A DNA stretch of 64,000 nt from Pseudomonadota bacterium (GTDB lineage Bacteria; Myxococcota_A; UBA796; SXON01). The stretch is from positions 22,894 through 86,893 of the forward strand of contig JAUXTN010000093.1 in the NCBI GenBank assembly GCA_030684355.1, read 5' to 3'. A program made the translations under genes and the position numbers. Shown piece after piece: positions 1,430 to 63,733 of the stretch (positions are counted from its first letter, which is position 1; the number at the start of each line of letters is the position of its first letter). The notes below the pieces were generated by a model that made no database searches, was not told the origin of the DNA, and saw only the letters and a list, made by a program, of their open reading frames with translations.

Positions 1430-4150
1430 TCACAGGTACCGCCCCGTCCGCGACCCCGGCGTGGCGCGGATCGTGGCGGGCGCGCCCTCGGCGATCACGC
1501 CGCCGCCCGCGGAGCCCGCCCCTGGCCCCAGCTCGACCAGCCAGTCGCACCCGCCGAGCAGCACGGGGTCGTGCTCCACCGCGAGCACGCTGCCGCCTTG
1601 CTCCACGAGCTGGCGCAGGGCCTCGACCAGCAGCGCCACGTCGGAGGGGTGGAGGCCGACGGAGGGCTCGTCGAGCAGGTAGAGCGTGCCGGGGACCTCG
1701 CCCTTGCGGCCGAGCTCCCGCGCGAGCTTGACGCGCTGGGCCTCGCCGCCGGAGAGGGTGTCGCCGGGCTGGCCGAGCGCAAGGTAGCCGAGGCCGAGGG
1801 CGTCGAGCGTCGCGAGCGGGCCGGCGATCTGGGGGACGGAGGGGAAGAGGTTGCGGGCGTCGCGGACGGGCATGGCGAGCACGTCCGCGATGCTGGCGCC
1901 CTTCCAGGTGACCGCGAGCGTGGCCTCGTCGAAGCGCCGGCCGTCGCAGACCTCGCAGGGGACGGTCACGTCGGGGAGGAAGTGCATCGCGACGCGCCGA
2001 ACGCCCTCGCCTTCGCACGCCTCGCACCGGCCGCCGGGCTGGTTGAAGAGGAAGCGCTCCGGACCGAAGCCGCGGAGCTTCGCCTCGGCGGTCTTCGCGT
2101 AGAGCTGGCGGATGGGGTCCCAGATCTTGGTGGCCGTGGCCGGGTTCGACCGCGCCGAGCGGCCCAGCGGCGCCTGGTCGACGCGCACGATGCGCGTGAT
2201 GGCGTCGGCGCCCTCGAGGCCCGTGTGGGGCAGGGGTTCGGGGCCGCCGAAGCCGAGCTTGCGGGTGAGGGCACGGCCGAGCGTGTCCTCGACGAGGGAG
2301 CTCTTGCCGGAGCCGCTCACGCCGGTCACCCCGACGAGCGCGCCGAGGGGGAAGCGGACCTCGGGGGCCCGGAGGTTGTGGCCGGTGGCGCCGCGGAGGG
2401 TGAGCCAACGGTCGAGACGTCGCGACGATGGGGGCGAGAGGGTCTCGCGGCCGGAGAGCCAGCGGCCGGTCGAGGTGTCCGCCGCGAGCAGGGCCTCGGG
2501 GGTGCCGACGAACACGATCTCGCCGCCCGCCCGCCCGGCGCCGGGCCCGAAGTCGACGACGAGGTCGGCCGCGCGCACGACGTCGAGGTCGTGCTCCACG
2601 ACGAGCACCGTGTTGCCGGCGTCCCGGAGGTCGGTGAGCACGGCGACGAGCGCGCGCGTGTCCTCGGGGTGGAGGCCGGCGGTGGGCTCGTCGAGCACGT
2701 AGAGCACGCCGGAGAGCTGGTTGCCGGCCTGGGCGGCGAGGCGGAGCCGCTGCAATTCGCCGCCGGAGAGCGTGGCGGCGCTGCGATCGAGGGTGAGGTA
2801 GCCGAGGCCGGTGCGGAGGAGGAAGTCGAGGCGGCGGCCGAGCTCTTCCTGCAGCGGGGCCACGATCGGGCCCGGGGGGAGGTCGGCGACGAACGCGCGG
2901 GTGTCGGTCAACGCGAGCGCCGAGACCTCGGCCAGGGAGCGGCCGGAGACGCGGACGGCGCGCGCGGCGGGTCCGAGGCGGGCGCCCTTGCACGCGGGGC
3001 ACGTGCGCTCTTCGACCGCGACGGTGCCCTTCTTCTCGGCGAGCGCGACCGCGCCCTCCAGCCGCGGCGCCGCGGTGGACTCGGGGGGATCTCCGTAGAG
3101 CACGAGGTGGCGCTGCTCCCACGGGAGCGCTTGCCACGGGACGTCGGTGGGGACGCCGCGGGCGCGCACCGAGGCCTCCAACGAGCGCTTCAGGGCGCCC
3201 TTCCAGCCCTCGACCGCGCCGTCCGCGAGCGACTTCGTGGGGTCGGGGACGAGGCGGTCGGGGTCGACCGAGCGGGTGACGCCGAGGCCCTGGCAGTCGG
3301 GGCAGGCGCCGACCGGCGAGTTGAAGGAGAAGAGGCGCGGAGCGGGCTCGGGGAGGTCGAGATCACAGGCGAGGCAGCGGAGGACGGCGGTGAACGCGGT
3401 GTCCTCGCCGTCGACCTCCGCGACGAGCGCGCCCCGGCCGATGCGGAGCGCGGCGTCCACCGCCTCCTGCATGCGGTCCTTGCGGTCGGGCGAGACCTTG
3501 ATGCGATCGACGACGACGTCGACGTCGTGGGGCACCCGGCCGTCGAGCGGGGGGACCTCGTCGAGCGCGACGGTGGTGCGGTCGATGCGGACGCGCGCGA
3601 AGCCCTGGGAGACGAGGCCGTCGAGGAGCGGCTTGAGGCTGCCCGTGCGCGCGCGGGCGAACGGGGCGCACACGACGAGGCGGGCGCCGACCGGGAGGCC
3701 GAGGAGCGCGCGGACGATGGCGTCGGCGGGGGTGCGCGAGACGGGGCGATCGCAGCGCGGGCAGTGCGGGGCGCCGGTGCGGGCCCACAAGACGCGGAGG
3801 AGCTCGTGGACCTCCGTGAGGGTGCCGACGGTGGCGCGCGGGGAGGGCGCGACGAGGCCGCGCTGGGCGACGCCGATGCTCGGCGTGAGGCCGGTGAGGA
3901 GCTCGTAGGCGGGCTTCTTCGTGGCCCCGAACTGCTGGCGCACGTAGCTGGAGAGGGCCTCGACGAAGCGGCGTTGGGATTCGGCGTGGAGGGTGTCGAA
4001 CGCGAGCGACGACTTGCCGCTGCCGGAGGGCCCCGTGAAGACGACGAGGCGCTCGCGGGGGAGGTCGAGATCCACCGAGCGCAGGTTGTGCTCGCTCGCG
4101 CCGCGGATCCGGATGTCGACGGTGCGGTGGGCTCGTTCCGGGGGAGGCAT
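1430..4150 (-). CDS. uvrA: excinuclease ABC subunit A family ATPase (divergent UvrA, possibly a paralogue)
   Basis: Motifs: RGASEHNL, two Walker A sites (GPSGSGKSSLAFDT and GVSGSGKSSL), Zn-finger Cys pairs (CPRCDR, CPDCQGLG, CEACEGEG), LSGGE signatures. The ATG at 4150 is preferred over the GTG at 4180. Several normally invariant blocks are altered compared with my memory of canonical UvrA. Confidence 0.9.
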   Translation of the reverse strand: MPPPERAHRTVDIRIRGASEHNLRSVDLDLPRERLVVFTGPSGSGKSSLAFDTLHAESQRRFVEALSSYVRQQFGATKKPAYELLTGLTPSIGVAQRGLVAPSPRATVGTLTEVHELLRVLWARTGAPHCPRCDRPVSRTPADAIVRALLGLPVGARLVVCAPFARARTGSLKPLLDGLVSQGFARVRIDRTTVALDEVPPLDGRVPHDVDVVVDRIKVSPDRKDRMQEAVDAALRIGRGALVAEVDGEDTAFTAVLRCLACDLDLPEPAPRLFSFNSPVGACPDCQGLGVTRSVDPDRLVPDPTKSLADGAVEGWKGALKRSLEASVRARGVPTDVPWQALPWEQRHLVLYGDPPESTAAPRLEGAVALAEKKGTVAVEERTCPACKGARLGPAARAVRVSGRSLAEVSALALTDTRAFVADLPPGPIVAPLQEELGRRLDFLLRTGLGYLTLDRSAATLSGGELQRLRLAAQAGNQLSGVLYVLDEPTAGLHPEDTRALVAVLTDLRDAGNTVLVVEHDLDVVRAADLVVDFGPGAGRAGGEIVFVGTPEALLAADTSTGRWLSGRETLSPPSSRRLDRWLTLRGATGHNLRAPEVRFPLGALVGVTGVSGSGKSSLVEDTLGRALTRKLGFGGPEPLPHTGLEGADAITRIVRVDQAPLGRSARSNPATATKIWDPIRQLYAKTAEAKLRGFGPERFLFNQPGGRCEACEGEGVRRVAMHFLPDVTVPCEVCDGRRFDEATLAVTWKGASIADVLAMPVRDARNLFPSVPQIAGPLATLDALGLGYLALGQPGDTLSGGEAQRVKLARELGRKGEVPGTLYLLDEPSVGLHPSDVALLVEALRQLVEQGGSVLAVEHDPVLLGGCDWLVELGPGAGSAGGGVIAEGAPATIRATPGSRTGRYL

Positions 4151-4247
4151 TGGCGTGCGAACGTAATCGCGACGGGGCACCTCCGGGTGTCCGCGCCGTC
4201 GGCGCGTGCGGGGCGGCGACGGCGGACCTCCGGGCTACCATCCCCGC

Positions 4248-10331: not shown

Positions 10332-12913
10332 CAGGGGACGGCTCCGGCGCCCGCGCCACGCACGGCCGGCGCTTCGGTGGGGGGAGGCGCGGCGACGGCG
10401 ACCGGCACGCCGGGGAACGCGGCGCGGGGCGGCTCGACGAGGGAGAGCGCGGTGACCATCGCGAAGGGGGCGCCCGCCGGCGTGGAGAGCTCGACGACGA
10501 CGCCCTCGGCGGTTGCGGGGATCGGCACGGGCAGGACCCAGCTCGGCGGCGTGGCGTCGAGGGTGGCGAACGGGGCGGTCCCCTCGAACACGGTCTCGGT
10601 CCCGACGATCACCCGCGCGGTCATCGCCGCCGTCGGGTCGGTGCCCCCGAACGCGGAGACGGTGAGGTCGAGGCGCGTGGCGGCGGTGGAGAGCCGCCGG
10701 AGGGGATCGGCGCCGACGGTGAACCGGGCGATGTCTCCCGGGTAGATCCACCGCCCGGACCGGCACGCGCGGTCGGGGTTCAGGATCGCCGTGTAGGTCC
10801 GGCCGCTCTCGATCGGCGAGGCGCCGTCGGGCGCGCTGAAGAGGATCCCGAAGGCCGTGTGGGCGTAGGCGCCGCCGCCTTCCTTCACGATCCGCAGCGG
10901 GCTGTTGGGCGCGGGGAGGGGGACCCCGTCCTCCAGGACCACCACCGGCGAGCACGCGGAGATCCCCGACTGCTTGTAGACGGTGTCGCCGTCGGGCGCG
11001 CCGAGGGCCGTGGCCTCGAACCGGAAGCCCCCTTCGCGCGTGGGGAGGGCCTTCCCCAGCGGGCCGAGTGGCGGGGGCGCGGCGGCGTAGGCCAGCTCTC
11101 CCCGGAGCATCTCGACGGTGCGGCCGCTGTCGGGGGCGCCGAGGAGGTACCAGGGCGCGGCGTCGGTGCCCGCGACGATGCGCCGCACGAGGAGCCAGGG
11201 CCCGTCGGGCGGCGAGGTGACCTCGACGCCCCAGGCAGCCGTCGGCGCGGCCCCGGCCACCGTCGCACTGCCCGCGGCGCCCTCGACGGCGAGGGGCGCG
11301 CTGCCGCCGACCCAGGAGACGGTCGCGGGGGAGGTGCCGGGGATGGCGACGTGGGCCTCGACGTAGACCGCGAAGCCGTCGACCGGGGCGTCGAACCCCT
11401 GCGCGGCATCGGCGCGCAGGGTGGTGCCCGGGTACACCCAGTAGAGCTCCCGGCCGAACGGATCGCGCAGGGGGACGTCATCGCTCAAGGCGAGCGTGTA
11501 CGCGCGGCTCGGGACGACCTCCGCGGGGCCGCCGGTGGGCGAGAACTTCACGCTCCCGGCCTGGTGGCTGAACCCGCCGGCGCAGGAGAGGTCGAAGGCC
11601 TCGCGCGCCGCGTGGGGCAGGAGCGGGGTGCCGTCCTCCGCGAGGAGGAGCGGCGAGGCCGCGCCGATGCCGGCCTTGCCGAGGACCGTGTCCGAGATCC
11701 CCTCGAGGCCCTTCACGTTGAGTTGCCACCCGCATTCCCAGGGGCCGCGCTTGGGCGCCGGGGGGGCCGGGAGGGTGGGGGGCTCGCCGCGGCGCGTGAC
11801 CGTGGCGGGCGAGCGGGGCAGGGGGGCGGGCCCGAACGGGGCGGCCCCCATCGCGCCCATCGCCACGAGCCGATCGGCGAGCGCCGCCGAGAGGGTCGTG
11901 CGGCCAGAGCTGTTCATGTGGATGCCGTCGCCGTAGGCGGAGGGCGGCAGGCGGAGGTCGGCGAGGTCGAGGTAGCCGGCGCCGGCCTGGTTCAGCGCGT
12001 CGACCATCGCGCGCACGAGCGCGGGGTCGGAGCGATCGTAGACATCCACCTTCGCGGCCGAGAGCGGGGCCTGCGCGAACACGATGCGCGCGCCGTGGTC
12101 GTGCGCGAGCGCCACGAGGTCGGGGACGAGGGTGTCCGCCACGTCGGTGTCGCGCGCGGTCCGCTCGGCGGTCGCGGCCTCCGCGATGGGGATGGCGCGG
12201 TGGCGGGTGACGGCCTCCGCGCCGGCGTCGGCGCCGAGCACCTTCTCCAGGGCGGGCACGGCGTGGGCGCGGCCGGCGGCGAGCAGGCCGTCGGGGCTCG
12301 GCGGCGCGAAGAAGAGGCCCGCGATCCCGTCGCGGATGCCGTGCTGGAAGCCCTGCAGGAGCGACGTCTTGCGGGTCCGCACGCGCTGCCAGAAGGGGCT
12401 GACGGGTTCGCCGCCGAAGACCTTCTGGTCGAGCACGGGCTCGTTGTCGCCGAGGTACCTCGCGAGCGACATCCGCTCCAGCTCGCTGTCGAGGGTGGTC
12501 CGCAGCATGGCGCCCGCCGTGCCGTAGACGATGACCAGCTTCGGCGTGTGGCCGGCCTCGAAGACGCACCGCTCGAGCGACGCGTACCAGAGCGGGGCGC
12601 TGGAGCCGGGGCCGCCGACCTTCGCGATGTCCTTCACCCCGAGCGCGCGCGCGAGGACGGCGCGATCGACGTCGGTGCCCGCCTTGGAGTTGCCGACGAT
12701 CACGACATCGTCCCCCGCGCGCTCGACCGTCTGGAGGCAGGCCGTGACCTCGGGGGGCTCGGCGGCGCCCTCCCCCGGCGCGTCCGCGCGGCCCCAGTAG
12801 CCGAGCGTCCCGGCCACGATCGCCACGGGCATCAGCACCGCGAGGAGCGCGGACGCGGGCGACACCGGGGTGGACCGACGGGGGGGGCTAGAACTGGAAA
12901 TAGATGAAGTCAT
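10331..12913 (-). CDS. membrane-anchored SGNH/GDSL-type acyl-transferase/esterase-like protein with a large duplicated C-terminal region
   Basis: N-terminal RR plus TM (ASALLAVLMPVAIVAG). SGNH block I is VVIVGNSKAG and block V is YGDGIHMNSSG. It lies directly downstream of an MBOAT gene, as in AlgI/AlgJ-X, PatA/PatB and DltB/DltD pairs. The C-terminal ~470 aa contain two copies of a ~100-aa module. Confidence 0.8.
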   Translation of the reverse strand: MTSSISSSSPPRRSTPVSPASALLAVLMPVAIVAGTLGYWGRADAPGEGAAEPPEVTACLQTVERAGDDVVIVGNSKAGTDVDRAVLARALGVKDIAKVGGPGSSAPLWYASLERCVFEAGHTPKLVIVYGTAGAMLRTTLDSELERMSLARYLGDNEPVLDQKVFGGEPVSPFWQRVRTRKTSLLQGFQHGIRDGIAGLFFAPPSPDGLLAAGRAHAVPALEKVLGADAGAEAVTRHRAIPIAEAATAERTARDTDVADTLVPDLVALAHDHGARIVFAQAPLSAAKVDVYDRSDPALVRAMVDALNQAGAGYLDLADLRLPPSAYGDGIHMNSSGRTTLSAALADRLVAMGAMGAAPFGPAPLPRSPATVTRRGEPPTLPAPPAPKRGPWECGWQLNVKGLEGISDTVLGKAGIGAASPLLLAEDGTPLLPHAAREAFDLSCAGGFSHQAGSVKFSPTGGPAEVVPSRAYTLALSDDVPLRDPFGRELYWVYPGTTLRADAAQGFDAPVDGFAVYVEAHVAIPGTSPATVSWVGGSAPLAVEGAAGSATVAGAAPTAAWGVEVTSPPDGPWLLVRRIVAGTDAAPWYLLGAPDSGRTVEMLRGELAYAAAPPPLGPLGKALPTREGGFRFEATALGAPDGDTVYKQSGISACSPVVVLEDGVPLPAPNSPLRIVKEGGGAYAHTAFGILFSAPDGASPIESGRTYTAILNPDRACRSGRWIYPGDIARFTVGADPLRRLSTAATRLDLTVSAFGGTDPTAAMTARVIVGTETVFEGTAPFATLDATPPSWVLPVPIPATAEGVVVELSTPAGAPFAMVTALSLVEPPRAAFPGVPVAVAAPPPTEAPAVRGAGAGAVP

Positions 12914-14376: not shown

Positions 14377-14967
14377 TCAATCGTCGATGGCGTCGCACCA
14401 GAAGGCGATGGGCTGCGGCGTGAGCGTGACGTCGCCGGTGTCCCCGGTGAGCGCGCCGGTGGTGAACGTGCCGTAGGCGCCGTTGGTGCCGAAGCCCTCG
14501 ACGACGACCTCCACGTCCACCGTGCCGCTGTTGGCGGCGTAGTAGCGGCCGCCGCTGAAGTTCTCGATGAGCTGCACCTGGACGGTCGTGTTGTAGGTGC
14601 CCCGGCCGGCGAAGGGCTCGCGCACGAAGAGGCGGAGGTTCCAGGTGAATTCGGTCGCCGAGTTCGAGTAGGTGAGCTGGAACTGGTTGTTGGGCGGGTG
14701 GGAGCACACGATCTGGTCGAACGTGGCGGGCCCCGCGGCATCGCCGGCGAGCTGCACGGTGATGGGGAGCGGGCTCGCGGGGAGCTCGATCGTGTCGTCC
14801 ATCGTGCTGGTGTCGGTGTCCGCGTCGGTATCCGTGTCCGTGTCCGCGTCGGTGTCCGTGTCCGTGTCCGCGCTGGAGGTGTCCCCCGAGTCGTCCGCCG
14901 TCTTGTCGGAGACGCAGCCGAGGAGGGCGAGGAGCGCCAGGAGGAGCGGGTAGGAGCGTGCGCGCAT
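14377..14967 (-). CDS. lipoprotein with Asp-Thr repeat linker, unknown function
   Basis: The internal ATG at 14967 gives MRARSYPLLLALLALLGC (signal plus lipobox), followed by SADTDTDTDADTDTDTDADTDT. Confidence 0.75.
   Translation of the reverse strand: MRARSYPLLLALLALLGCVSDKTADDSGDTSSADTDTDTDADTDTDTDADTDTSTMDDTIELPASPLPITVQLAGDAAGPATFDQIVCSHPPNNQFQLTYSNSATEFTWNLRLFVREPFAGRGTYNTTVQVQLIENFSGGRYYAANSGTVDVEVVVEGFGTNGAYGTFTTGALTGDTGDVTLTPQPIAFWCDAIDD
14809..14868 (-). repeat. coding (GAC-ACN)n hexanucleotide repeat encoding (DT)n/DA linker
   Basis: Codons 34-53 of the lipoprotein; gtgtcc/gtgtcg periodicity is visible on the plus strand. Confidence 0.8.
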
Positions 14968-14988: not shown

Positions 14989-15025
14989 GTAGCCAGGCCG
15001 GCTAGCGCACGGCCTGTCTATCGTT
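14989..15025 (+). repeat. 37-nt hairpin-forming intergenic repeat, copy 1
   Basis: GTAGCCAGGCCGGCTAGCGCACGGCCTGTCTATCGTT. It contains a 7-bp stem CAGGCCG/CGGCCTG around the loop GCTAGCGCA. It is identical (37/37, inverted) to 36240..36276 and matches 29656..29692 at 33/37. Confidence 0.9.
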
Positions 15026-15080
15026 GTCGGACCCGTGCCGGGATGCGGTACGCTCTCGCGTCGCACCTGGAGGCGCGCGG

Positions 15081-15971
15081 ATGGAGCTCGTCGCCCGGAA
15101 CGTGGAGGTCGCCGCGAGCGGCCGTACCATCCTCTCGGGGATCGACCTGAGGCTCCGCGCGGGGGAGCTCTGCGGCCTCATCGGGCCGTCCGGAGCGGGG
15201 AAGAGCACGTTGATCCGCGTGCTCCTCGGCCTCACGACGCCCGCGCGGGGGGACGTGACGCTCGCGGGCGCGCCGGTCGGGACCCGGGGGCCGGTCGGCT
15301 ACGTGCCGCAGGACGACGCGCTGCACACCTCGCTGCGCGTGGGGGACGCCCTCGGCTTCGCGGCGGAGCTCCGGATGCACGGCGCCCCGGACCCCTCCCG
15401 CGCGGCGCGGGTGCGCGAGGTGATCGCGCAGGTGGGCCTCTCGGAGCGGGTGGACGTGCGGATCGCACGCTTGAGCGGCGGCCAGCGCAAGCGGGTCAGC
15501 GTCGCGATGGAGCTGCTCTCCCGCCCCGAGCTCCTCATCCTCGACGAGCCGACGAGCGGGCTCGATCCGGGGCTCGAGGCGAAGATGATGGAGCTCTTCG
15601 CGGGCGTGGCGCGCTCCGGCCGCGTCGTCATCGTAGCCACGCACGCCATGCAGTCCCTCGCCTGCTGCGACGCCCTCGCCGTGCTCGCCGGCGGCCTGCT
15701 CGTCTACTTCGGCCCGCCCGCCGACGCCCCCGCGTTCTTCGGCGCCCGGGACCTCGTCGATCTCTTCGCGCGCCTCGCCACCGAGCGCCCGGAGGCCTGG
15801 GCCGCCCGCTACCGCCAGAGCGGCCTCGCCACGTCGTTCGCGGCGCGCGCGCGGCCGATGAGCCCCGCCCCGGCCTCCGGGGAGCCCGCCGCCAACCCGC
15901 TCGCCGCCCGCGCCTCGCTCGTCGCGGAGCTCGAGCGCCTGAAGGCCGCGCGCGCGAAGGGCGACGCTTGA
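15081..15971 (+). CDS. ABC transporter ATP-binding protein
   Basis: Walker A GPSGAGKST, signature LSGGQRKR, Walker B LLILDEPTSGLD. Start at MELVARN. Confidence 0.9.
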   Translation: MELVARNVEVAASGRTILSGIDLRLRAGELCGLIGPSGAGKSTLIRVLLGLTTPARGDVTLAGAPVGTRGPVGYVPQDDALHTSLRVGDALGFAAELRMHGAPDPSRAARVREVIAQVGLSERVDVRIARLSGGQRKRVSVAMELLSRPELLILDEPTSGLDPGLEAKMMELFAGVARSGRVVIVATHAMQSLACCDALAVLAGGLLVYFGPPADAPAFFGARDLVDLFARLATERPEAWAARYRQSGLATSFAARARPMSPAPASGEPAANPLAARASLVAELERLKAARAKGDA

Positions 15972-20876: not shown

Positions 20877-20922
20877 CCGGGGGGCGAGCCCCCCGGCGGG
20901 GCGTTGCGGGGCTGGGCCCCGC
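20877..20922. terminator. two tandem GC hairpins between convergent TerC and MbnP-like genes
   Basis: CCGGGGGG-cgag-CCCCCCGG (20877-20896) and GCGGGGC-tgg-GCCCCGC (20906-20922). Confidence 0.4.
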
Positions 20923-20945
20923 CCCACGAGCCTCCATGCGAGCGA

Positions 20946-24744: not shown

Positions 24745-25815
24745 TCAGACCGAGCTGATCGTGGTGCCCAGGCCGCCGCGCTCGAGCTGGAAAGCCTGGA
24801 GGTAGGATGCCGCCCGGATCGTGTGCTTGACGCTCTTGACGTACCAGAGGCCGTCGAACGTGCTGCCCGCTCCTCGCACATTCACGAGCCGTCGGGGCCG
24901 GAGCACCGCCTGGTAGCGCCAGACGTCGAGCTCGCCGGAGCCCGTCACCTCGATGTCTTCTCCGAAGTTGCCCTGCACCACGCGGTCGACGAAGGTCGGG
25001 CTGGAGAGGTCCGCGGCGAAGGAGAGGGAACGGACGTTTGTCTCGGGGCCCAGGTTAATCGAGAGGACGGGCTGGGGAACGCCGACGCGCGGCGAGGCGC
25101 CCCAATAGGCCCGGTTCGTGCCAGGGCCCGTCGGCTCTACGAAGAACAGCGCCCCGTTTCGCTCGGCGAGGCGCTGCACGAGGGCACGGTGCGTCTCGTT
25201 CTGGCGCACTTCTACCAGTGGGTCCGGTACATAGGATCCAATCGTCGGATCGAGGTCGGGTATGATGCCGATGAAGGCGTAGCCGGCGAGCGCGGCCAGC
25301 ACGATCGCGACGTCGGGGAGCGCCGGGAAGGGGACCGAGAGTGCGACCAGGTCCATGTAGTAGCTCACGTCCTCCCCCGTGACGGGGAGTGTGGCGCCCT
25401 CGGGGCCCGGCACGAGCTGTACGTGCGTGATGACGCCGTCCATGAGCCAGGACGTCTGGCCGGACACCGTCACCGAGATCCAGACGCGGCGAAACGGCGC
25501 GAGCGCGCCCGATGCGAGAAGCGGCAGGTCGGCCGTGAGCGTCGCGCTTCGCTCAGCACGAAACTGGATTTGGAATCCGGAAGGTGCCTTGTCCGACTCA
25601 TTCACCTCCACGCTCACGACGGAGCGCATGACGTCCGCCGGGAGTGGAGACGGCGCGGCCAGACCGGTGCTCAATGTGACCCAGGCGAAGCTCACGCTGG
25701 ACCCTTGGGTAGGACAAGAAGCGTCACCGCCCTCCACGGGGCGTAGTAGGCCTGGGGGGCTGCTCACGTGGGGCTCCGAAGCTCGATGAGCTGGGGCGGG
25801 AACGTCTGGCGCCAC
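24745..25815 (-). CDS. phage late control gene D / VgrG-N-like hub protein (contractile tail/injection system family)
   Basis: VVSVEVNESDKAPSGFQIQF, ALVQRLAERNGALFFVEP, GLWYVKSVKHTIRAASYLQAFQLERGGLG are gpD-like blocks. The GTG start is uncertain. The GC content is lower than in the flanks. Confidence 0.75.
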   Translation of the reverse strand: MAPDVPAPAHRASEPHVSSPPGLLRPVEGGDASCPTQGSSVSFAWVTLSTGLAAPSPLPADVMRSVVSVEVNESDKAPSGFQIQFRAERSATLTADLPLLASGALAPFRRVWISVTVSGQTSWLMDGVITHVQLVPGPEGATLPVTGEDVSYYMDLVALSVPFPALPDVAIVLAALAGYAFIGIIPDLDPTIGSYVPDPLVEVRQNETHRALVQRLAERNGALFFVEPTGPGTNRAYWGASPRVGVPQPVLSINLGPETNVRSLSFAADLSSPTFVDRVVQGNFGEDIEVTGSGELDVWRYQAVLRPRRLVNVRGAGSTFDGLWYVKSVKHTIRAASYLQAFQLERGGLGTTISSV

Positions 25816-25822
25816 GACGCCA

Positions 25823-28393: not shown

Positions 28394-29659
28394 GTGAAGA
28401 TGATCTTGCTCCTGGCCGCTGCCGCCCTCGCGGATCCCACGTTCACCGACCTGGGGCTCCTCGTCACCGCGCCGGCCGAGGGTCCGTTCGCCGGCGGGGT
28501 GAACGCGCCGACCGTCGCCTGGACCGGCACGCAGTACGTGATGTACTTCGAGTCTCCCGCGCTCGCGGCGGACGTCCCGTCGGACTGCGCCAACAGCTAC
28601 TCGATCGGCCGGGCGACCTCCCCGGACGGCCTCGCCTGGACCGTCGACGCCGCGCCCGTGCTCGCCCCGGATCGCGCCGACCCCGTGAGCCTCTACTCGT
28701 GCTCCGTGGCGTCCCCCGGGGTCGTCTACGCGGACGGCGTCTACCACCTCTTCTTCGCGATGGGGGACGAGCGCCAGGACAGCGGCAGCGCCATCAACCG
28801 CGCTGCCGGCATCGCCTACGCCACCAGCACGGACGGCGTGACGTTCGCCGTCCAGCAGGCGCCGACCCCCATCGGCGACTACGAGGACGGCATCCCGACG
28901 GGGGAGTGGCACGAGCCGGATGGCGGCGGGAGCAGCACGTCCGTCGGCATGCCGACCGTGACGCTCATCAACGACACGCTCTACCTGCTCTACCTCTCCA
29001 GCACGAGCATGTACGGCGCGAAGTACGACCTCGCGTCGAGCACGTGGAGCCTCTGGGACGACGCCGTCTCCACCGGCTGGCTCGGCACCGACTGGGCCGC
29101 GTACGGCGTCTACTCGCCCGCGCTCTACTGCTCCGACGACGAGACGCTCACCGCCCTGGTCGGCGGCTACACCGACGCCTCCTACGTCTCCCGCGGCGTC
29201 GGTGTGGCGACCTCTCCCGATCTCGTCGACTGGACCGTCGGCGCCGCGCTCGCGGCGGACTCCGTGCCCTTCGACACCATCAACCACGTCGAGGTGCTGC
29301 CCGCGGGCGCGGACCTCCTCCTGTTCTACGGCATGACGGACACCGAGAGCGGCAAGAAGGCCATCGGGATGGGCACGACGTCGACCTCGTGGGGCACCCC
29401 CGACGGGCGCGCGTGCGAGTGGGAGATCCCGGTCGACACGGGCGGCGGCGACACGGACACCGACACGGATGCCGACACCGACACCGACACGGATCCCGAC
29501 ACCGACACCGACACGGCGGAGCCCGATACCGCCTGGGACACGGGCGAGGACGTCCCGGACATGATCTGCGCCTGCACGACCGGCGGCGGGGGCGCTGGCA
29601 CCGGCGTGCTGGCGATCGCGCTGGGCGCGCTCGCGTTGGGGCGGCGTCGGCGGGGGTAG
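28394..29659 (+). CDS. secreted beta-propeller glycoside-hydrolase-like protein with DT linker and MYXO-CTERM-like sorting tail
   Basis: Signal peptide MKMILLLAAAALA. Repeated propeller-like blocks (YVMYFES, GRATSPDGLAWT, VYHLFFAMGD, AYATSTDGVTF). The C-terminus ICACTTGGGGAGTGVLAIALGALALGRRRRG has the order Cys pair, Gly-rich stretch, TM, Arg cluster. Confidence 0.8.
   Translation: MKMILLLAAAALADPTFTDLGLLVTAPAEGPFAGGVNAPTVAWTGTQYVMYFESPALAADVPSDCANSYSIGRATSPDGLAWTVDAAPVLAPDRADPVSLYSCSVASPGVVYADGVYHLFFAMGDERQDSGSAINRAAGIAYATSTDGVTFAVQQAPTPIGDYEDGIPTGEWHEPDGGGSSTSVGMPTVTLINDTLYLLYLSSTSMYGAKYDLASSTWSLWDDAVSTGWLGTDWAAYGVYSPALYCSDDETLTALVGGYTDASYVSRGVGVATSPDLVDWTVGAALAADSVPFDTINHVEVLPAGADLLLFYGMTDTESGKKAIGMGTTSTSWGTPDGRACEWEIPVDTGGGDTDTDTDADTDTDTDPDTDTDTAEPDTAWDTGEDVPDMICACTTGGGGAGTGVLAIALGALALGRRRRG
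29450..29515 (+). repeat. coding (GAC-ACN)n repeat encoding DTDTDTDADTDTDTDPDTDTDT linker
   Basis: Codons 353-374 of the 28394..29659 gene. Confidence 0.8.
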
Positions 29660-29692
29660 CCAGGCCGGCTAGCGCACGGCGTGGCGATCGTC
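29656..29692 (+). repeat. 37-nt hairpin-forming repeat, copy 2 (33/37 to copy 1)
   Basis: GTAGCCAGGCCGGCTAGCGCACGGCGTGGCGATCGTC. The TAG at 29657-29659 is the stop codon of the upstream gene. Confidence 0.85.
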
Positions 29693-29729
29693 GTCGAGTC
29701 GGCGCCCCCCCGGCGGGCGCCGCGCTCCG

Positions 29730-31127
29730 TCACATGTGCGCGCTCTTCCCCAGCGCGACGGCCACGGCCTCGTACATCGTCTCGCCCATCGTCGGGTGGG
29801 CGAACACGGTGTGGAGGATGCCTTCGGCGGTCATTTCGGCGGCGCGGGCCATCACGAAGGTCGAGAGGAGCTCGCTCGCGTCGTGGCCGATGATGTGCGC
29901 GCCGAGGATCTCGCCGTACTTCTTGTCGACGAGCACCTTCACGAAGCCCTCGGTGTGGCCGGTGCCGCGCGCCTTGCCGTTCGCGGAGAAGGGGAAGCTC
30001 CCGACGCTGAAGTCGAGCCCCTTCGCCTTGGCGGCCTCCTCGGTCAGGCCGACGCTGGCGATCTGCGGCTGGCAGTATGTCGCGGCGGGCATGTTGCCGT
30101 AGTCGACGTCGGGGCTGTGCTTGCCGGCGATGCGGTCGATGCACGTGTGGGCCTCGGCGTACGCCGTGTGCGCCAACGCGGGACCGCCGCACACGTCGCC
30201 GATGGCGTAGAAGCCCGCGACGCTCGTGCGATACGACGAGTCGTGCTGGATGAAGCCCTTCTCCAACGCGATGCCGACCTTCTCCAGGCCGATGCCCTCG
30301 GTGTTCGGCGCGATGCCGATCGCCACGAGGCACACCTCGGCCTTCAACGTGCGGCCGTCCTGGAGGGTGACGACCACGCCGTCTCCCTCGCGGGTGACGC
30401 TCTTGCAGAAGGTCCCGATCTCGGTCTTGATGCCGAGCTTCTTGTAGGCCTTCGCCAATTCGGCGGAGACCTCCGCGTCCTCCAGCGGGCAGAGGCGCCC
30501 GGCGCCCTCGACCACGGTGACGTCGGTGCCGAACGCGTTCCAGAAGTAGGCGAACTCCAGGCCGATCGCGCCGGAGCCCAGCACGATCGCGGACTTCGCC
30601 TGGGTCGGGCTGGCGATGGCCTCGCGGTAGGTGAGGATCTTCTCGCCGTCCGGCTCGATGCCCGGGAAGGTGCGCGCGCGCGCCCCCGTCGCGATGATGA
30701 TGTGCTTCGCCTCGTGGACCTCTTCGCCGTCCTTGGTCTTGACCCGCACCTGGTTCATCCCGGGAGCACCGGGCCCGTCGATCGTGGCGGTGCCGGCGAT
30801 CGAGGTGACGCCGTACTTCTGGAAGAGGAACTTCACGCCGCGCTCGGACTGGTCCGCCACGCGGCGCGAACGCTTCACGACGGCCGCGTAGTCGTGGCGC
30901 GGGTTGTCCGCGGCGAGGCCGAAGGCGGCCGTCTCGTTCTTGAGGAACAGGTAGTGCTCGGCCGCCTTCAGGAGCGCCTTCGACGGGATGCAGCCCCAGT
31001 TGAGGCAGACCCCGCCGAGCTTCTCCTTCTCGATGCACGCGGCCTTCAGCCCGAGCTGCTGGGCGCGGATGGCCGCGACGTAGCCGCCGGGGCCGGAGCC
31101 GATCACCAGGACGTCGAAGCTCGCCAT
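29730..31127 (-). CDS. lpdA: dihydrolipoyl dehydrogenase (E3)
   Basis: MASFDVLVIGSGPGGYVAAIRA, redox-active GGVCLNWGCIPSK, and HAHPT-type C-terminus (FAHPTMGE). 465 aa. TGATG coupling to E2. Confidence 0.95.
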   Translation of the reverse strand: MASFDVLVIGSGPGGYVAAIRAQQLGLKAACIEKEKLGGVCLNWGCIPSKALLKAAEHYLFLKNETAAFGLAADNPRHDYAAVVKRSRRVADQSERGVKFLFQKYGVTSIAGTATIDGPGAPGMNQVRVKTKDGEEVHEAKHIIIATGARARTFPGIEPDGEKILTYREAIASPTQAKSAIVLGSGAIGLEFAYFWNAFGTDVTVVEGAGRLCPLEDAEVSAELAKAYKKLGIKTEIGTFCKSVTREGDGVVVTLQDGRTLKAEVCLVAIGIAPNTEGIGLEKVGIALEKGFIQHDSSYRTSVAGFYAIGDVCGGPALAHTAYAEAHTCIDRIAGKHSPDVDYGNMPAATYCQPQIASVGLTEEAAKAKGLDFSVGSFPFSANGKARGTGHTEGFVKVLVDKKYGEILGAHIIGHDASELLSTFVMARAAEMTAEGILHTVFAHPTMGETMYEAVAVALGKSAHM

Positions 31128-35621: not shown

Positions 35622-36059
35622 ATGGCCGACCGCGAACCGCCCGACGAGCCTGATGATCGCCCCGCGAGCGCGGGGGCCGCGGACCGTCCGAACGATCGGG
35701 GCGGCCGCTTCCGCCGGCTCGGGCGCCGCATCATGGGGGACGCCGAGGGCGAGGGGCAGACCCGCGAGGGTCGCACCATCCTGGGGGACGCCAAGGAGGT
35801 CTTCGGCGCGGTGCTCGAGGGCGGTGACAAGGCCAAGTCCGAGGTGGTCCGCGCGGTGGCGCGCGAGGTGCGCAACTACCTGGAAGAGCTCGGCCTCAAG
35901 GACGACCTGAAGAACCTCGCCACCAACTACTCCCTCGAGCTGCACGCGAGCGTGAACCTCCGGCGCCTCGCGGAGAGCGAGAAGGCGCCCCGGGAGGAGA
36001 AGCGGGACGACAAGGCGGCGGCCAGGGACGAGAAGGGGCGGTCGGAGAAGGGCGAGTAG
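35622..36059 (+). CDS. hypothetical charged protein
   Basis: 145-aa ORF with a coherent helical central region (EVVRAVAREVRNYLEELGLKDDLKNLATNYSLEL). No family recognised. Confidence 0.55.
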   Translation: MADREPPDEPDDRPASAGAADRPNDRGGRFRRLGRRIMGDAEGEGQTREGRTILGDAKEVFGAVLEGGDKAKSEVVRAVAREVRNYLEELGLKDDLKNLATNYSLELHASVNLRRLAESEKAPREEKRDDKAAARDEKGRSEKGE

Positions 36060-36156
36060 AGCGCCTCGCACCACCGGTCCAGCGGCTACCGCGCCGAGCG
36101 GCTAGCCGATCTTCCTGGCGGGTTACCAAACCCGGCAAGAAGACTCGCGATCCGGA

Positions 36157-36231
36157 GGCGGCTCCGTTTCGAGTGCCTCCATGTTTGCGCTGGGCGCAAG
36201 CATGGAGGCGCGAAGTAAACGGAGCTTCGCC
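36157..36231. other. 75-nt extended hairpin (candidate bidirectional terminator or structured small RNA)
   Basis: The inner 15-bp stem pairs 36176-36190 with 36194-36208 (one G-U, loop TGG). The outer 9-bp stem is GCTCCGTTT/AAACGGAGC (36161-36169 with 36217-36225). A further 4 bp close at 36157-36160 with 36228-36231. Confidence 0.6.
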
Positions 36232-36239
36232 GACTAAAT

Positions 36240-36276
36240 AACGATAGACAGGCCGTGCGCTAGCCGGCCTGGCTAC
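36240..36276 (-). repeat. 37-nt hairpin-forming repeat, copy 3 (inverted, 37/37 to copy 1)
   Basis: The reverse complement equals GTAGCCAGGCCGGCTAGCGCACGGCCTGTCTATCGTT. Its TAG (36273-36275 on the minus strand) is the stop codon of the CotH-like gene. Confidence 0.9.
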
Positions 36277-37964
36277 CGCGCTTCGATCTGCGCGCGCACG
36301 GACGCCGGCCAGGTCGCGATCGTGGAGAGGGTGGCGTCGTAATAGTAGGTGTGCGAGTCGAGCCCGAACTCGCGCCGCGCGTCCGTCTCGATGTCGGGGA
36401 GGAGCCACCCGTGCAGGTCGTCGGCCTGGGCGGCCAGGTCGAGGGCGTCCATCGTCTCGGAGGTCTCCCAGAGGAGGGCGTCGTACCGGGCCGCGCAGTC
36501 GGCGTTCTCCAGGCAGAACGTGAACAGGTTCCCGTAGGCGCTCCACGGGCCGTAGTAGAGCGTCAGGAACGTCTGGTCCGTGCCCCACGGGATGATCTGG
36601 AACCGGTCCGTCGTGGGGTCGTGGTAGAGGCGGTAGTTGTTCCGCGTCGTGTAGCCGTCCCAGTGGAGCAGCAGGGCCTCGACGGCCATGTTGGCGAGCA
36701 CCTCGTCGAGGTCGACGAGCTCTTCGAGCGCGGCGATGCCGGCGTCGTCGGCCTCGCCGTCGAGCACGTCGATGACCGCGGTGAGGTCGGTGCGGTCGGT
36801 GGAGTCGGGCCCCTCGTCGTAGTCGAACGAGTCCTCGTAGCCGCTGATGAGGTCGACCCCGTAGGCGCCCTCGTAGAGCGCCCCGTCCGGGTTGGCGTAC
36901 CAGCGCTCGAGGAAACGATGGTCGAGCGTCTCCATGAACAGGTACAGGCCGTAGTCGACCCCGTTGACGGACACCCGCGCGTAGCCGACGCGGGGCGTCG
37001 GGACGTCCATCGCCCGGAAGAGCTCGTAGGCGAGGTACTCGTGGACGTAGGTGTAGTCCTGGACCATGTTGTTGAGCGTCAGCGTCTCGAGCCCGCGCCA
37101 CTCCTGGTCGACGTAGTGGTTCAGGTCGACCTTGAAGCCGGCCTTCTGGTCGATGGTGCGCGACGAGCCGACATAGGCCTTCAGCCGCACGCCGACGGAG
37201 GCGTAGTACATCCCGTCCACCGTGACCTCCCCCTCCACGTAGGTCAGGCGGTCGGCCTGGAGGCTCGCGTAGGAGGCGTCGCTGAGCAGGATGTCGACGG
37301 TGTGCAGCGTGTCGAGCTGGAACACGGTGTCCGTCGGGTCGAGCGTGGCGCTCGGGGTCGCCGGGTTGGGTGCGTCGGGCGTGGCAGCGATCGTGGGCGC
37401 CCACTCGCCGCCGTCCGGGTGGCGGGCCCAGGCCACGTCGGCGTCCAACTCGCCGAGGGAGAGCCGATCGGTGACAGCGCCCTCGAACGCCAGCGTGAGG
37501 GTGTCCCCGTCGGCGTCGAGCGAGAAGGGGACGGAGTCGTCGCCGTCCCCTTCGTCGGCATAGAGGAGCACACGTTCGCCCGGCGCGAGGTCGGCGTCGG
37601 GGCCGAGCCACACCCGGCCGCTCGCGTCCGTCAGGCTTACCCGCGCGAGGGGAACGGGGACCTCGTCGGCGTTGTACAGCTCCACCCAATCTGGGAACCC
37701 GCCGTCAACGCCGCGAAGCGCCGAGCGGTTCTTCGACATCGCCTCGTTCAGCACGATGCGCGGAGGGGGATCCTCCACGTAGACCCCGATGGCAGCCGTG
37801 TCCTCGGGGGGCGGGTCCTCCGGCGCGTCGGCGCCGCCCGTGTCGGCCGCCACTGCCAACGTGCCGAGCACGTCCGGCTCCGGCGTGACGGTGGGTAGAT
37901 AGCAGGCGAGCAGCAAGCACATGCGCCGGGGAGGGTACACCCGGCGGCCGGACACGGGGAGCAA
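36273..37964 (-). CDS. CotH kinase family protein with N-terminal lamin-tail-domain, probable lipoprotein
   Basis: LTD-like IVLNEAMSKNR...FPDWVELYN. CotH-like LTLNNMVQDYTYVHEYLAYELFRAMDVPTPRVGYARVSVNGVDYGLYLFMETLD. The alternative ATG at 37922 gives an MCLLLAC lipobox. Confidence 0.82.
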   Translation of the reverse strand: MLPVSGRRVYPPRRMCLLLACYLPTVTPEPDVLGTLAVAADTGGADAPEDPPPEDTAAIGVYVEDPPPRIVLNEAMSKNRSALRGVDGGFPDWVELYNADEVPVPLARVSLTDASGRVWLGPDADLAPGERVLLYADEGDGDDSVPFSLDADGDTLTLAFEGAVTDRLSLGELDADVAWARHPDGGEWAPTIAATPDAPNPATPSATLDPTDTVFQLDTLHTVDILLSDASYASLQADRLTYVEGEVTVDGMYYASVGVRLKAYVGSSRTIDQKAGFKVDLNHYVDQEWRGLETLTLNNMVQDYTYVHEYLAYELFRAMDVPTPRVGYARVSVNGVDYGLYLFMETLDHRFLERWYANPDGALYEGAYGVDLISGYEDSFDYDEGPDSTDRTDLTAVIDVLDGEADDAGIAALEELVDLDEVLANMAVEALLLHWDGYTTRNNYRLYHDPTTDRFQIIPWGTDQTFLTLYYGPWSAYGNLFTFCLENADCAARYDALLWETSETMDALDLAAQADDLHGWLLPDIETDARREFGLDSHTYYYDATLSTIATWPASVRAQIEAR

Positions 37965-37994
37965 CCGACGCTTCGCCGCCCGAGCGCCCCGTCG

Positions 37995-52039: not shown

Positions 52040-52194
52040 ACCCCAACCGGCCCCCGAGCGGGCCGGCCGGGGCCCCGGCGCCGTTCGTGCCATCGCCACA
52101 CCTTCGCCTGCCGACCCGTCGGGCGCCCCTCGGGGGCGTCCTTTGGGGTCGGCCTGAACGCCGACCGCTCTACGAACGTGCGATAGTGCGCCGC

Positions 52195-62737: not shown

Positions 62738-63733
62738 ATGTTCCCGCTGCTCGTTCTCCTTGCTTGCACCGCCACGGATGGCCCCTGGAAGGACGAGGTC
62801 GGTGACACCGCCCCTCCGCGCGTGGACTCGGTCCCCACCGACACGGACCCGGACACGGAGCGGGACACCGCCGACACCGCCGACAGCGGGGGGGCCCCGG
62901 GCCCGGTCCTGCCCGTGCCGTGCGACACCTGGGCCGAGCCCCGCGACGTGGGCTACCTCGCCGACCCCGAGCGCGAGGAGGTCTCCGGGGTCGCACCGTC
63001 GCTCGTGAACCCGGGCGTCCTCTGGATGCTCGAGGACCACGGCAACGCCCCCGCGTTCTACGCCATCGACCTGACCGGCGCGGCGCTCGGGACGCTCACC
63101 CTCGAGGGGATCGAGAACGACGACTGGGAGGCCATCGCGCTGGGGCCGTGCCCGACGGGGAGCTGCCTGTGGGCGGCCGACGTGGGCGACAACTCCGCGG
63201 TGCGCACGGAGGTGCAGCTCTACCGCGTACCGGAGCCCGCCGTCGGGTGGGGCGGCGGGCTCGACGCCACCGTGGTCGCCGAGCGCTTTCCGCTCGTCTA
63301 CGCGGACGGCCCGGTCAACGTCGAGGCCATGTTCCTCACGCCCGAAGGCCTGCCCGTGTTCCTCTCCAAGCGGGGCGACGGGACCTCCCGGGTCTACGTC
63401 GTCGACACGCTCGTGGCCGACGAGGTCGCCGCGCCCCGCTACGTCGGTGAGCTCGCGACGTTCGCCGACGGCAGCGAGACCGGCGGGCTCGTCACCTCGG
63501 CAGACCTCTGGCCGGACGGCTCGCGCCTCCTCGTGCGCACCTACGACGGCGCGTGGGAGCTCGATCTCGGCGACGGCGGCATCGAGGGCATCCCGACCGC
63601 CCCGCGCATCGCGCTCCCGTTCGCGGACGAGCGGCAGGTGGAGTCCGTCGCCTACGACACCGTGCTCGGCGGCTACTGGCAGATCCCCGAGGGCGTCAAC
63701 GTGCCGATCTCGTTCGTGGCCTGCCTGGACTGA
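62738..63733 (+). CDS. lipoprotein with D/T-rich linker and propeller-like body, unknown function
   Basis: MFPLLVLLAC lipobox, PTDTDPDTERDTADTAD linker. 331 aa taken from the tail of track ORF 61685..63733. Confidence 0.7.
   Translation: MFPLLVLLACTATDGPWKDEVGDTAPPRVDSVPTDTDPDTERDTADTADSGGAPGPVLPVPCDTWAEPRDVGYLADPEREEVSGVAPSLVNPGVLWMLEDHGNAPAFYAIDLTGAALGTLTLEGIENDDWEAIALGPCPTGSCLWAADVGDNSAVRTEVQLYRVPEPAVGWGGGLDATVVAERFPLVYADGPVNVEAMFLTPEGLPVFLSKRGDGTSRVYVVDTLVADEVAAPRYVGELATFADGSETGGLVTSADLWPDGSRLLVRTYDGAWELDLGDGGIEGIPTAPRIALPFADERQVESVAYDTVLGGYWQIPEGVNVPISFVACLD

Follow-up and report, generated by a model that had tools for sequence, protein, structure and literature searches.

Introduction

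REP families have, as a rule, tens to hundreds of copies, and a cognate gene for a RAYT (Y1 HUH transposase) is flanked by REPs. In the GTAG-tagged type a conserved tetranucleotide, GTAG (GT[A/G]G), forms one end. The GTAG-tagged REPs are extragenic sequences of 20-40 nt with a G+C-rich palindromic stem of 6-9 bp (as a criterion, 6-13 bp), located mostly 3' of ORFs or between convergent ORFs (PMC3733652, PMC2817692). The TAG of the head can terminate the preceding reading frame, as described by Di Nocera et al. (2013, PMC3733652). The GTAG-3 REPs of E. coli possess GC/GC inner loops, and a REP of P. mendocina, GTAGCCCGGATGCAATCCGGG, has the same shape as the element described here (Nunvar et al. 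2010, PMC2817692).

The element is a short hairpin-forming repeat in a 64-kb stretch of DNA, which was analysed as a whole and is called the window below. Since its GTAG head, 7-bp G+C stem, complex loop, extragenic placement and occurrence at convergent gene ends match the published definition of GTAG-tagged REPs, we consider with moderate confidence that it represents a lineage-specific family of REP-like palindromes of this type, with a unit of about 37-50 nt. The core of 37 nt is within the size range of 20-40 nt, GTAG is terminal in all three copies, and the G+C stem is in range (7 bp plus a 2-bp inner stem). The loop is complex and carries GC/GC inner pairs as in GTAG-3, two of the three extragenic copies are located between convergent genes with the TAG serving as stop codon, and the sequence is species-specific. 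Of six GTAG-REP criteria, four apply to the element (size, GTAG end, stem and extragenic placement).

There are also differences from the described families. The element occurs as three single copies in 73 kb, with no dimers or clusters, and no RAYT gene was found in the accessible DNA of its source. Its conserved 3' tail (about 10-20 nt) is longer than in the described families. Further, GTAG is described as unpaired, whereas the head TAG of copies 1 and 3 can pair with the CTA of the tail. The host apparently belongs to the Myxococcota, a group that is unmentioned in the two papers (PMC3733652, PMC2817692).

Copies of the repeat and their assembly

An earlier note on this DNA had reported three sites, and its coordinates and identities were exact. 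Copy 1 of the 37-mer GTAGCCAGGCCGGCTAGCGCACGGCCTGTCTATCGTT, composed of the GTAG head, the hairpin and a tail, lies at 14989-15025 (+ strand, 37/37). Copy 2 is found at 29656-29704 (+ strand), where the 37-mer part (29656-29692) is identical at 33 of 37 positions; its first 25 nt (29656-29680) are unchanged, the substitutions are at element positions 26, 29, 31 and 37, and the tail runs on through AGTCGGCG. Copy 3 occupies 36228-36276 on the - strand, with a 37-mer part (36240-36276) that is a 37/37 reverse complement and is followed by the tail ATTTAGTCGGCG. The orientations of the three copies are mixed, and copies 1 and 3 are perfect inverted repeats at a distance of 21.2 kb. An inverted pair of 37 nt is able to break or flip short-read assemblies of the source genome.

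A loose similarity of the 3' flanks had also been claimed. It holds for copies 2 and 3, which are alike over 50 nt at 86%, AGTCGGCG included, but copy 1 has beyond the 37-mer only GTCGG in common with the other two, after a gap of 5 nt. The shared core is 37 nt, and up to 50 nt between copies 2 and 3. At the 5' side the border is sharp and identical (GTAG) in three unrelated contexts, and there is no similarity upstream of GTAG. A segmental duplication is ruled out since the similarity ends at the element borders.

The repeat is real. A search for the 37-mer gave 0 matches in 100 dinucleotide-preserving shuffles, the chance expectation being 0, and the element is the sole substantial dispersed repeat of the window. 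A covariance model comprising sequence and hairpin, used with the filters off, recovered the three copies in the window, together with the antisense image of each, and detected no fourth one; the same model found no extra copy in the 9.3 kb past the window start (contig L015). In the 73 kb of the source genome formed by the window and this contig together, three copies were seen.

An apparent repeat could arise if the MAG contig was joined chimerically or contained a duplicated k-mer. Logan contigs of sequencing run SRR13727518 indeed end inside copies 1 and 3, so that the MAG assembly is the single source for those two junctions. Nevertheless, an assembly artefact is very improbable. The separately assembled Logan contigs are 100% identical to the window, copy 2 is intact inside one of them (L009), and others carry 27 and 29 nt of the element on the same flanks as in the window. 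Furthermore, the genes for MlaD and a 145-aa protein, which are direct neighbours in relatives, stay close in the window, with nothing but the CotH gene and the copy-3 region between them. That two independently assembled contigs break inside the 37-mer is as expected for a repeat that is longer than k. The breaks are at element positions 27 (copy 1) and 9 (copy 3) instead of the positions 30 and 8 expected for three copies at k = 31, an offset that may be due to more variant copies or to trimming by the assembler.

Hairpin structure

In the element, GTAG and one spacer base are followed by the 7-bp G+C stem, which encloses a GC/TAGC/GC mini-stem with one bulged A, and then by a short tail. 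Copies 1 and 3 fold as TAG. CAGGCCG GC [TAGC] GC A CGGCCTG. CTA, with an RNA folding energy of -19.2 kcal/mol (z = -3.7). As DNA, the energies of these copies are -9.9 and -12.8 kcal/mol on the two strands. Over the copies the fold z-scores range from -2.7 to -4.6. The stem CAGGCCG/CGGCCTG with a 9-nt loop had been proposed earlier for each copy. This stem is present in copies 1 and 3 and approximate in copy 2, where a G.G mismatch leaves six of the seven pairs, and the proposed loop encloses an inner 2-bp GC/GC stem around TAGC. In copy 2 the pairs G8-C26 and A3-T31 are lost and the pairs C5-G29 and G4-C30 (outer) are gained. Its RNA energy of -19.4 kcal/mol is unchanged compared to the -19.2 kcal/mol of the other copies, despite four substitutions.

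The rarity of CTAG in the window that had been noticed earlier was confirmed: six sites are observed in 64 kb (12888, 15002, 29669, 36102, 36260 and 51866), while about 75 are expected from the di- and trinucleotide content, which corresponds to a roughly 12-fold under-representation. Three of the six are in the loops of the element and a fourth is in the intergenic region of copy 3, 160 nt from that copy.

Gene context

The window has a G+C content of 70-77%, and genes were called from third-codon-position G+C. There are about 61 genes, and non-coding DNA amounts to just 3,690 nt (5.8%) of the window. All three copies are within this 5.8%, for which the chance is about 2e-4 with three random placements.

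Copy 1 is in a 113-nt divergent intergenic region between the genes for an Asp-Thr-repeat lipoprotein (ATG at 14967, - strand) and an ABC ATPase (ATG at 15081, + strand). The TAG of copy 2 (29657-29659) is the stop codon of a 421-aa gene (28394-29659) that encodes a MYXO-CTERM-like C-terminus and converges on lpd (29730-31127, - strand), with which the pdh operon ends. Similarly, the CotH/LTD gene (36273-37922, - strand) ends with the TAG of copy 3 (36275-36273) as stop codon and is convergent with the gene for the 145-aa protein (35622-36059, + strand). In both cases the G of GTAG is the third base of the last sense codon of the upstream gene, and TAG is the stop of that gene. The description of the element as intergenic in the earlier note is thus correct for copy 1 but not fully for copies 2 and 3, where GTAG overlaps the end of the upstream gene. 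Between copy 2 and the stop codon of lpd there is a separate G+C hairpin, GGCGCCC...GGGCGCC (29696-29727, + strand), which is probably a native gene-end hairpin.

Next to every copy there is a gene whose product is secreted or lipid-anchored, i.e. the Asp-Thr-repeat lipoprotein, the MYXO-CTERM-like protein and the CotH/LTD protein. This would be consistent with a lineage-specific functional cis-element that is selected at three loci, acting either as a protein binding site or as an RNA hairpin that terminates or stabilises transcripts of secreted proteins. Such a role would agree with the position of copy 1, which is in the promoter region of two divergent genes and immediately precedes a promoter-like stretch conserved in a relative (L018), and with the hairpin energy of copy 2, which is kept despite four changes. 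However, the element is at a gene 5' end in one case and at 3' ends in two, and the intergenic region of copy 2 has a strong hairpin of its own. The three copies were scanned for sigma-70 promoters and U-tract terminators and none was called; the window gave 0 Rfam matches at gathering score, and searches by E-value yielded only generic hairpins far below threshold. The element is also not conserved at the orthologous sites of relatives with 84-90% lpd identity, and exact identity over 25-37 nt suggests recent copying rather than convergent selection. In view of this we consider selection as a cis-element rather improbable.

An intrinsic (Rho-independent) terminator would resemble the element in having a G+C hairpin right after a stop codon, as found at two of the three sites. 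Here the hairpin is followed by TCTATCGTT or GCGATCGTC and not by a U-tract, one copy is located at gene 5' ends, and unrelated terminators would not have 37 nt in common. Sigma-54 and ECF-sigma sites, integron attC sites (R'/R'') and a solo CRISPR repeat were considered by eye, and none fits.

Some other features were observed around the copies. Asp-Thr (DT) repeat linkers are encoded in three secreted-protein genes (14798-14888, 29430-29520 and 62836-62879), and copies 1 and 2 are each flanked by one of these genes. One of the DT repeats forms the end of the Logan contig L009. The 3' end of copy 1 falls within the putative -35 region (TTGTCG) of the promoter-like stretch at 15036-15080.

Comparison with relatives

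The lpd protein of the window is identical to MDP2313500.1 from a MAG labelled 'Pseudomonadota bacterium'. More distant lpd homologues, with 77% identity and below, carry the labels Myxococcota or Myxococcales. As judged from these sequences, the host genome is probably myxobacterial (Myxococcota). Three MAGs of relatives with 84-90% lpd identity were used for comparison: L010 (GCA_030685065.1), L011 (GCA_975651895.1) and L018/L020 (GCA_964457335.1). All three keep the order Mla - small gene - ApaG - pdh - lpd - 420/430-aa gene. With the covariance model the element was not found at the orthologous sites, nor across about 90 kb of syntenic DNA of relatives (L010, L011, L016, L018 and L020).

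Copy 2 is within the conserved gene order, which allows a direct comparison of its insertion site. The corresponding sequences are ...CGTCGGGGGTAG in L020 and ...CCCTGGGGTAG in L010; both keep GGGGTAG, followed by an unrelated strong hairpin. In the window the site reads ...CGGCGGGGGTAG, then the element, and then the second hairpin that belongs to the window itself. The retention of GGGGTAG in both relatives indicates that the TAG stop and the preceding G are ancestral and that the element was gained directly 3' of an existing GTAG.

At copy 3 the gene content differs. The CotH gene and the structured intergenic region are absent between MlaD and the small convergent gene (145-146 aa) in all three relatives. 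The junction of these two genes spans 36060-37994 in the window, where it contains CotH and the structured region, and is 51 nt long in L010 (4984-5034), occupied by an NTase/HEPN pair in L011 (4380-5221), and 0 nt in L020 (3581/3582). The closest homologue of the CotH protein is P0121 with 76% identity; a homologue in L016 is 67% identical and has the same terminal arginine, but its gene ends with a TGA stop.

At copy 1, the similarity to L018 upstream of the ABC ATPase begins right after the 3' end of the element, and the gene on the other side differs. A promoter-like sequence GAT(G/T)CG(G/C)TACGCT upstream of the ABC ATPase is conserved between the window (15036-15080) and L018 (8990-9023).

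The copies could also have spread passively between intergenic regions, by short-patch duplication or gene conversion, or be remnants of local rearrangements; in either case the element would have neither a dedicated mobility nor a function. Just three copies are seen, all of them within 21 kb, copies 1 and 3 are at positions where the gene order departs from that of relatives, and the neighbourhood is heavily rearranged among relatives. Yet copy 2 is in a region of conserved gene order, the three copies have a sharp and identical GTAG boundary at the 5' side in unrelated contexts, and their orientations are mixed. The exact fit to GTAG-tagged REPs would then be a coincidence. Passive duplication is unlikely for these reasons.

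Another explanation, which we regard as quite improbable, is that this lineage has a system for recombination or insertion by which blocks the size of genes are brought to gene ends, and that the element is the site that this system recognises or uses as a junction. Three observations would fit. The block that ends with copy 3, made up of the CotH gene and the structured 213 nt, is missing in the three relatives and has an 11-nt direct repeat as its boundary; upstream of the ABC operon, the similarity to a relative stops exactly at copy 1; and copies 1 and 3 form a perfect inverted pair at a distance of 21 kb. An inversion between copies 1 and 3 is ruled out, as the order Mla - pdh - 421-aa gene is collinear with that of relatives across copy 3. 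The direct pair of copies 1 and 2 is ruled out as attL/attR of an island since the genes beside copy 2 are syntenic in relatives.

Variable gene content is also seen elsewhere in the window. A conserved UvrA-like ABC protein of 916 aa (1430-4180, - strand) adjoins variable gene content, and the genes between it and the ABC operon differ between the window and L018. A lone gene for a T4 gp19-like tail-tube protein (PF06841; 25823-26296, - strand) is located beside a non-coding stretch of 349 nt (25474-25822); at this site the relative L020 has two cNMP-binding genes instead.

The copy-3 intergenic region

The intergenic region that contains copy 3 is 213 nt long and unusually structured (fold z = -5.2). 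Apart from the element it contains two hairpins and a palindrome (36099-36232, - strand). The first hairpin, of about 75 nt, is near-perfect (36232-36156, - strand) and has no Rfam match and no second copy in the window; it is followed by the second hairpin (36143-36110, - strand) and by the palindrome CGGCTAGCCG (36108-36099, - strand). The region is bordered by an 11-nt direct repeat. The first occurrence of GCGCGGTAGCC, at 36281-36271, spans the end of the CotH gene and the head of the element, and the second, at 36084-36094 (- strand), is 187 nt downstream on the same strand. The alignment score of this repeat was reached in only 12 of 2000 shuffles, but the likeness of the two sites is confined to the 11 nt. 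For the recurrence of GCGCGGTAGCC, a larger MITE-like element and a degenerate second copy are both in play, and the direct repeat makes the MITE remnant suggested in the earlier note conceivable.

If a larger element is assumed, the unit of 37-50 nt would be one end of a non-autonomous element (a MITE or a palindrome-associated element of the IS200/IS605 type), with copy 3 as the most complete form (about 176-187 nt) and copies 1 and 2 as truncated remnants. The direct repeat at copy 3 would then delimit a segment that is very structured (z = -5.2) and has CGGCTAGC at both ends, although there are only six CTAGs per 64 kb, and the absence of the CotH gene and the intergenic region from the same junction in three relatives would be consistent with insertion. 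MITEs are similarly short, structured and non-coding. However, the copies have no terminal inverted repeats in common, and the flanking direct repeat of copy 3 has no equivalent at copies 1 and 2, which are without flanking duplication. Neither the window nor the DNA of the relatives contains the interior (36099-36232) a second time, and plasmids and phages yielded no blastn match to the copy-3 intergenic region. In addition, GTAGCC would be derived from the target if the direct repeat was a target duplication, but it is present in copies 1 and 2 too, and the similarity at the distal site ends at 11 nt. A larger element is therefore unlikely, if somewhat less so than the other alternatives.

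Likely origin of the element

The exact 20-nt core gave two hits in GTDB representative genomes, six in JGI metagenomes and 0 in viral contigs. All hits share just the 20-mer and no flanking sequence, and were judged to be due to chance. Plasmids and phages lack the core as well, so that these collections document no wider family. Neither a Y1_Tnp (RAYT) domain nor another transposase domain was found among the approximately 50 window proteins scanned. The likeness to REP elements that the earlier note had proposed is in part supported, by the build (GTAG head and G+C hairpin), the extragenic placement, the TAG stops and the absence from syntenic sites of relatives, with the reservations that three copies were seen in 73 kb and that no RAYT was among these proteins. 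Its suggested likeness to BIMEs did not hold, since neither dimers in inverted orientation nor clusters of the BIME type are present in the window. REPINs and BIMEs, which consist of two or more REPs in alternating orientation at short, regular spacing, are built from hairpins of this type, but no copy of the element has an inverted partner within 100 nt.

The ends of IS200/IS605 elements and their transposase-less derivatives share with the element a subterminal hairpin beside a fixed tetranucleotide on the 5' side. In agreement with this, copy 2 was inserted just 3' of a pre-existing tetranucleotide with no obvious duplication. A transposase gene or a recognisable second end is missing, and we infer the link to these elements, as well as mobility and the enzyme involved, from the features of the copies.

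With the element regarded as a GTAG-tagged REP-like family, the most likely history of the copies would be duplicative insertion of a single-stranded hairpin element just 3' of GTAG. The ancestral GTAG at copy 2 fits such an insertion, as expected for hairpins handled by HUH enzymes of the IS200/IS605 type. Insertion adjacent to GTAG would correspond to the behaviour of elements that are processed by IS200/IS605-type HUH Y1 transposases (RAYT/TnpA-REP). Copies would survive only where they are harmless, which means chiefly at sites composed of G and a TAG stop, and in promoter-distal intergenic DNA. At copies 2 and 3 the inserted hairpin belongs to the 3' UTR of the gene before it, where it may hinder 3' exonucleases or weakly signal pausing or termination, and effects at the RNA level, such as on transcript ends and stability, would be conceivable. 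A function is not needed to explain the element.

If a multi-copy family and a cognate RAYT are confirmed, REPs of the GTAG type would be extended to a probable Myxococcota lineage. Copy 2 would then be a clear example of a GTAG that was at the insertion site before the element, which bears on the site choice of REPs.

Two other types of structured sequence were encountered in the window. No real tRNA is present near the element. A tRNA-Leu(CAG) called by ARAGORN at 12258-12344 (+ strand) lies within an 844-aa ORF of the other strand and is probably a false call, as there is no Rfam tRNA match at gathering score. Two intergenic hairpins, at 52147-52173 and 20906-20927 (both - strand), combine a GTAG or GTGG head with a perfect 7-bp stem that is unrelated to that of the element. 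Each could belong, as a single member, to another REP-like family or be an ordinary hairpin at a gene end.
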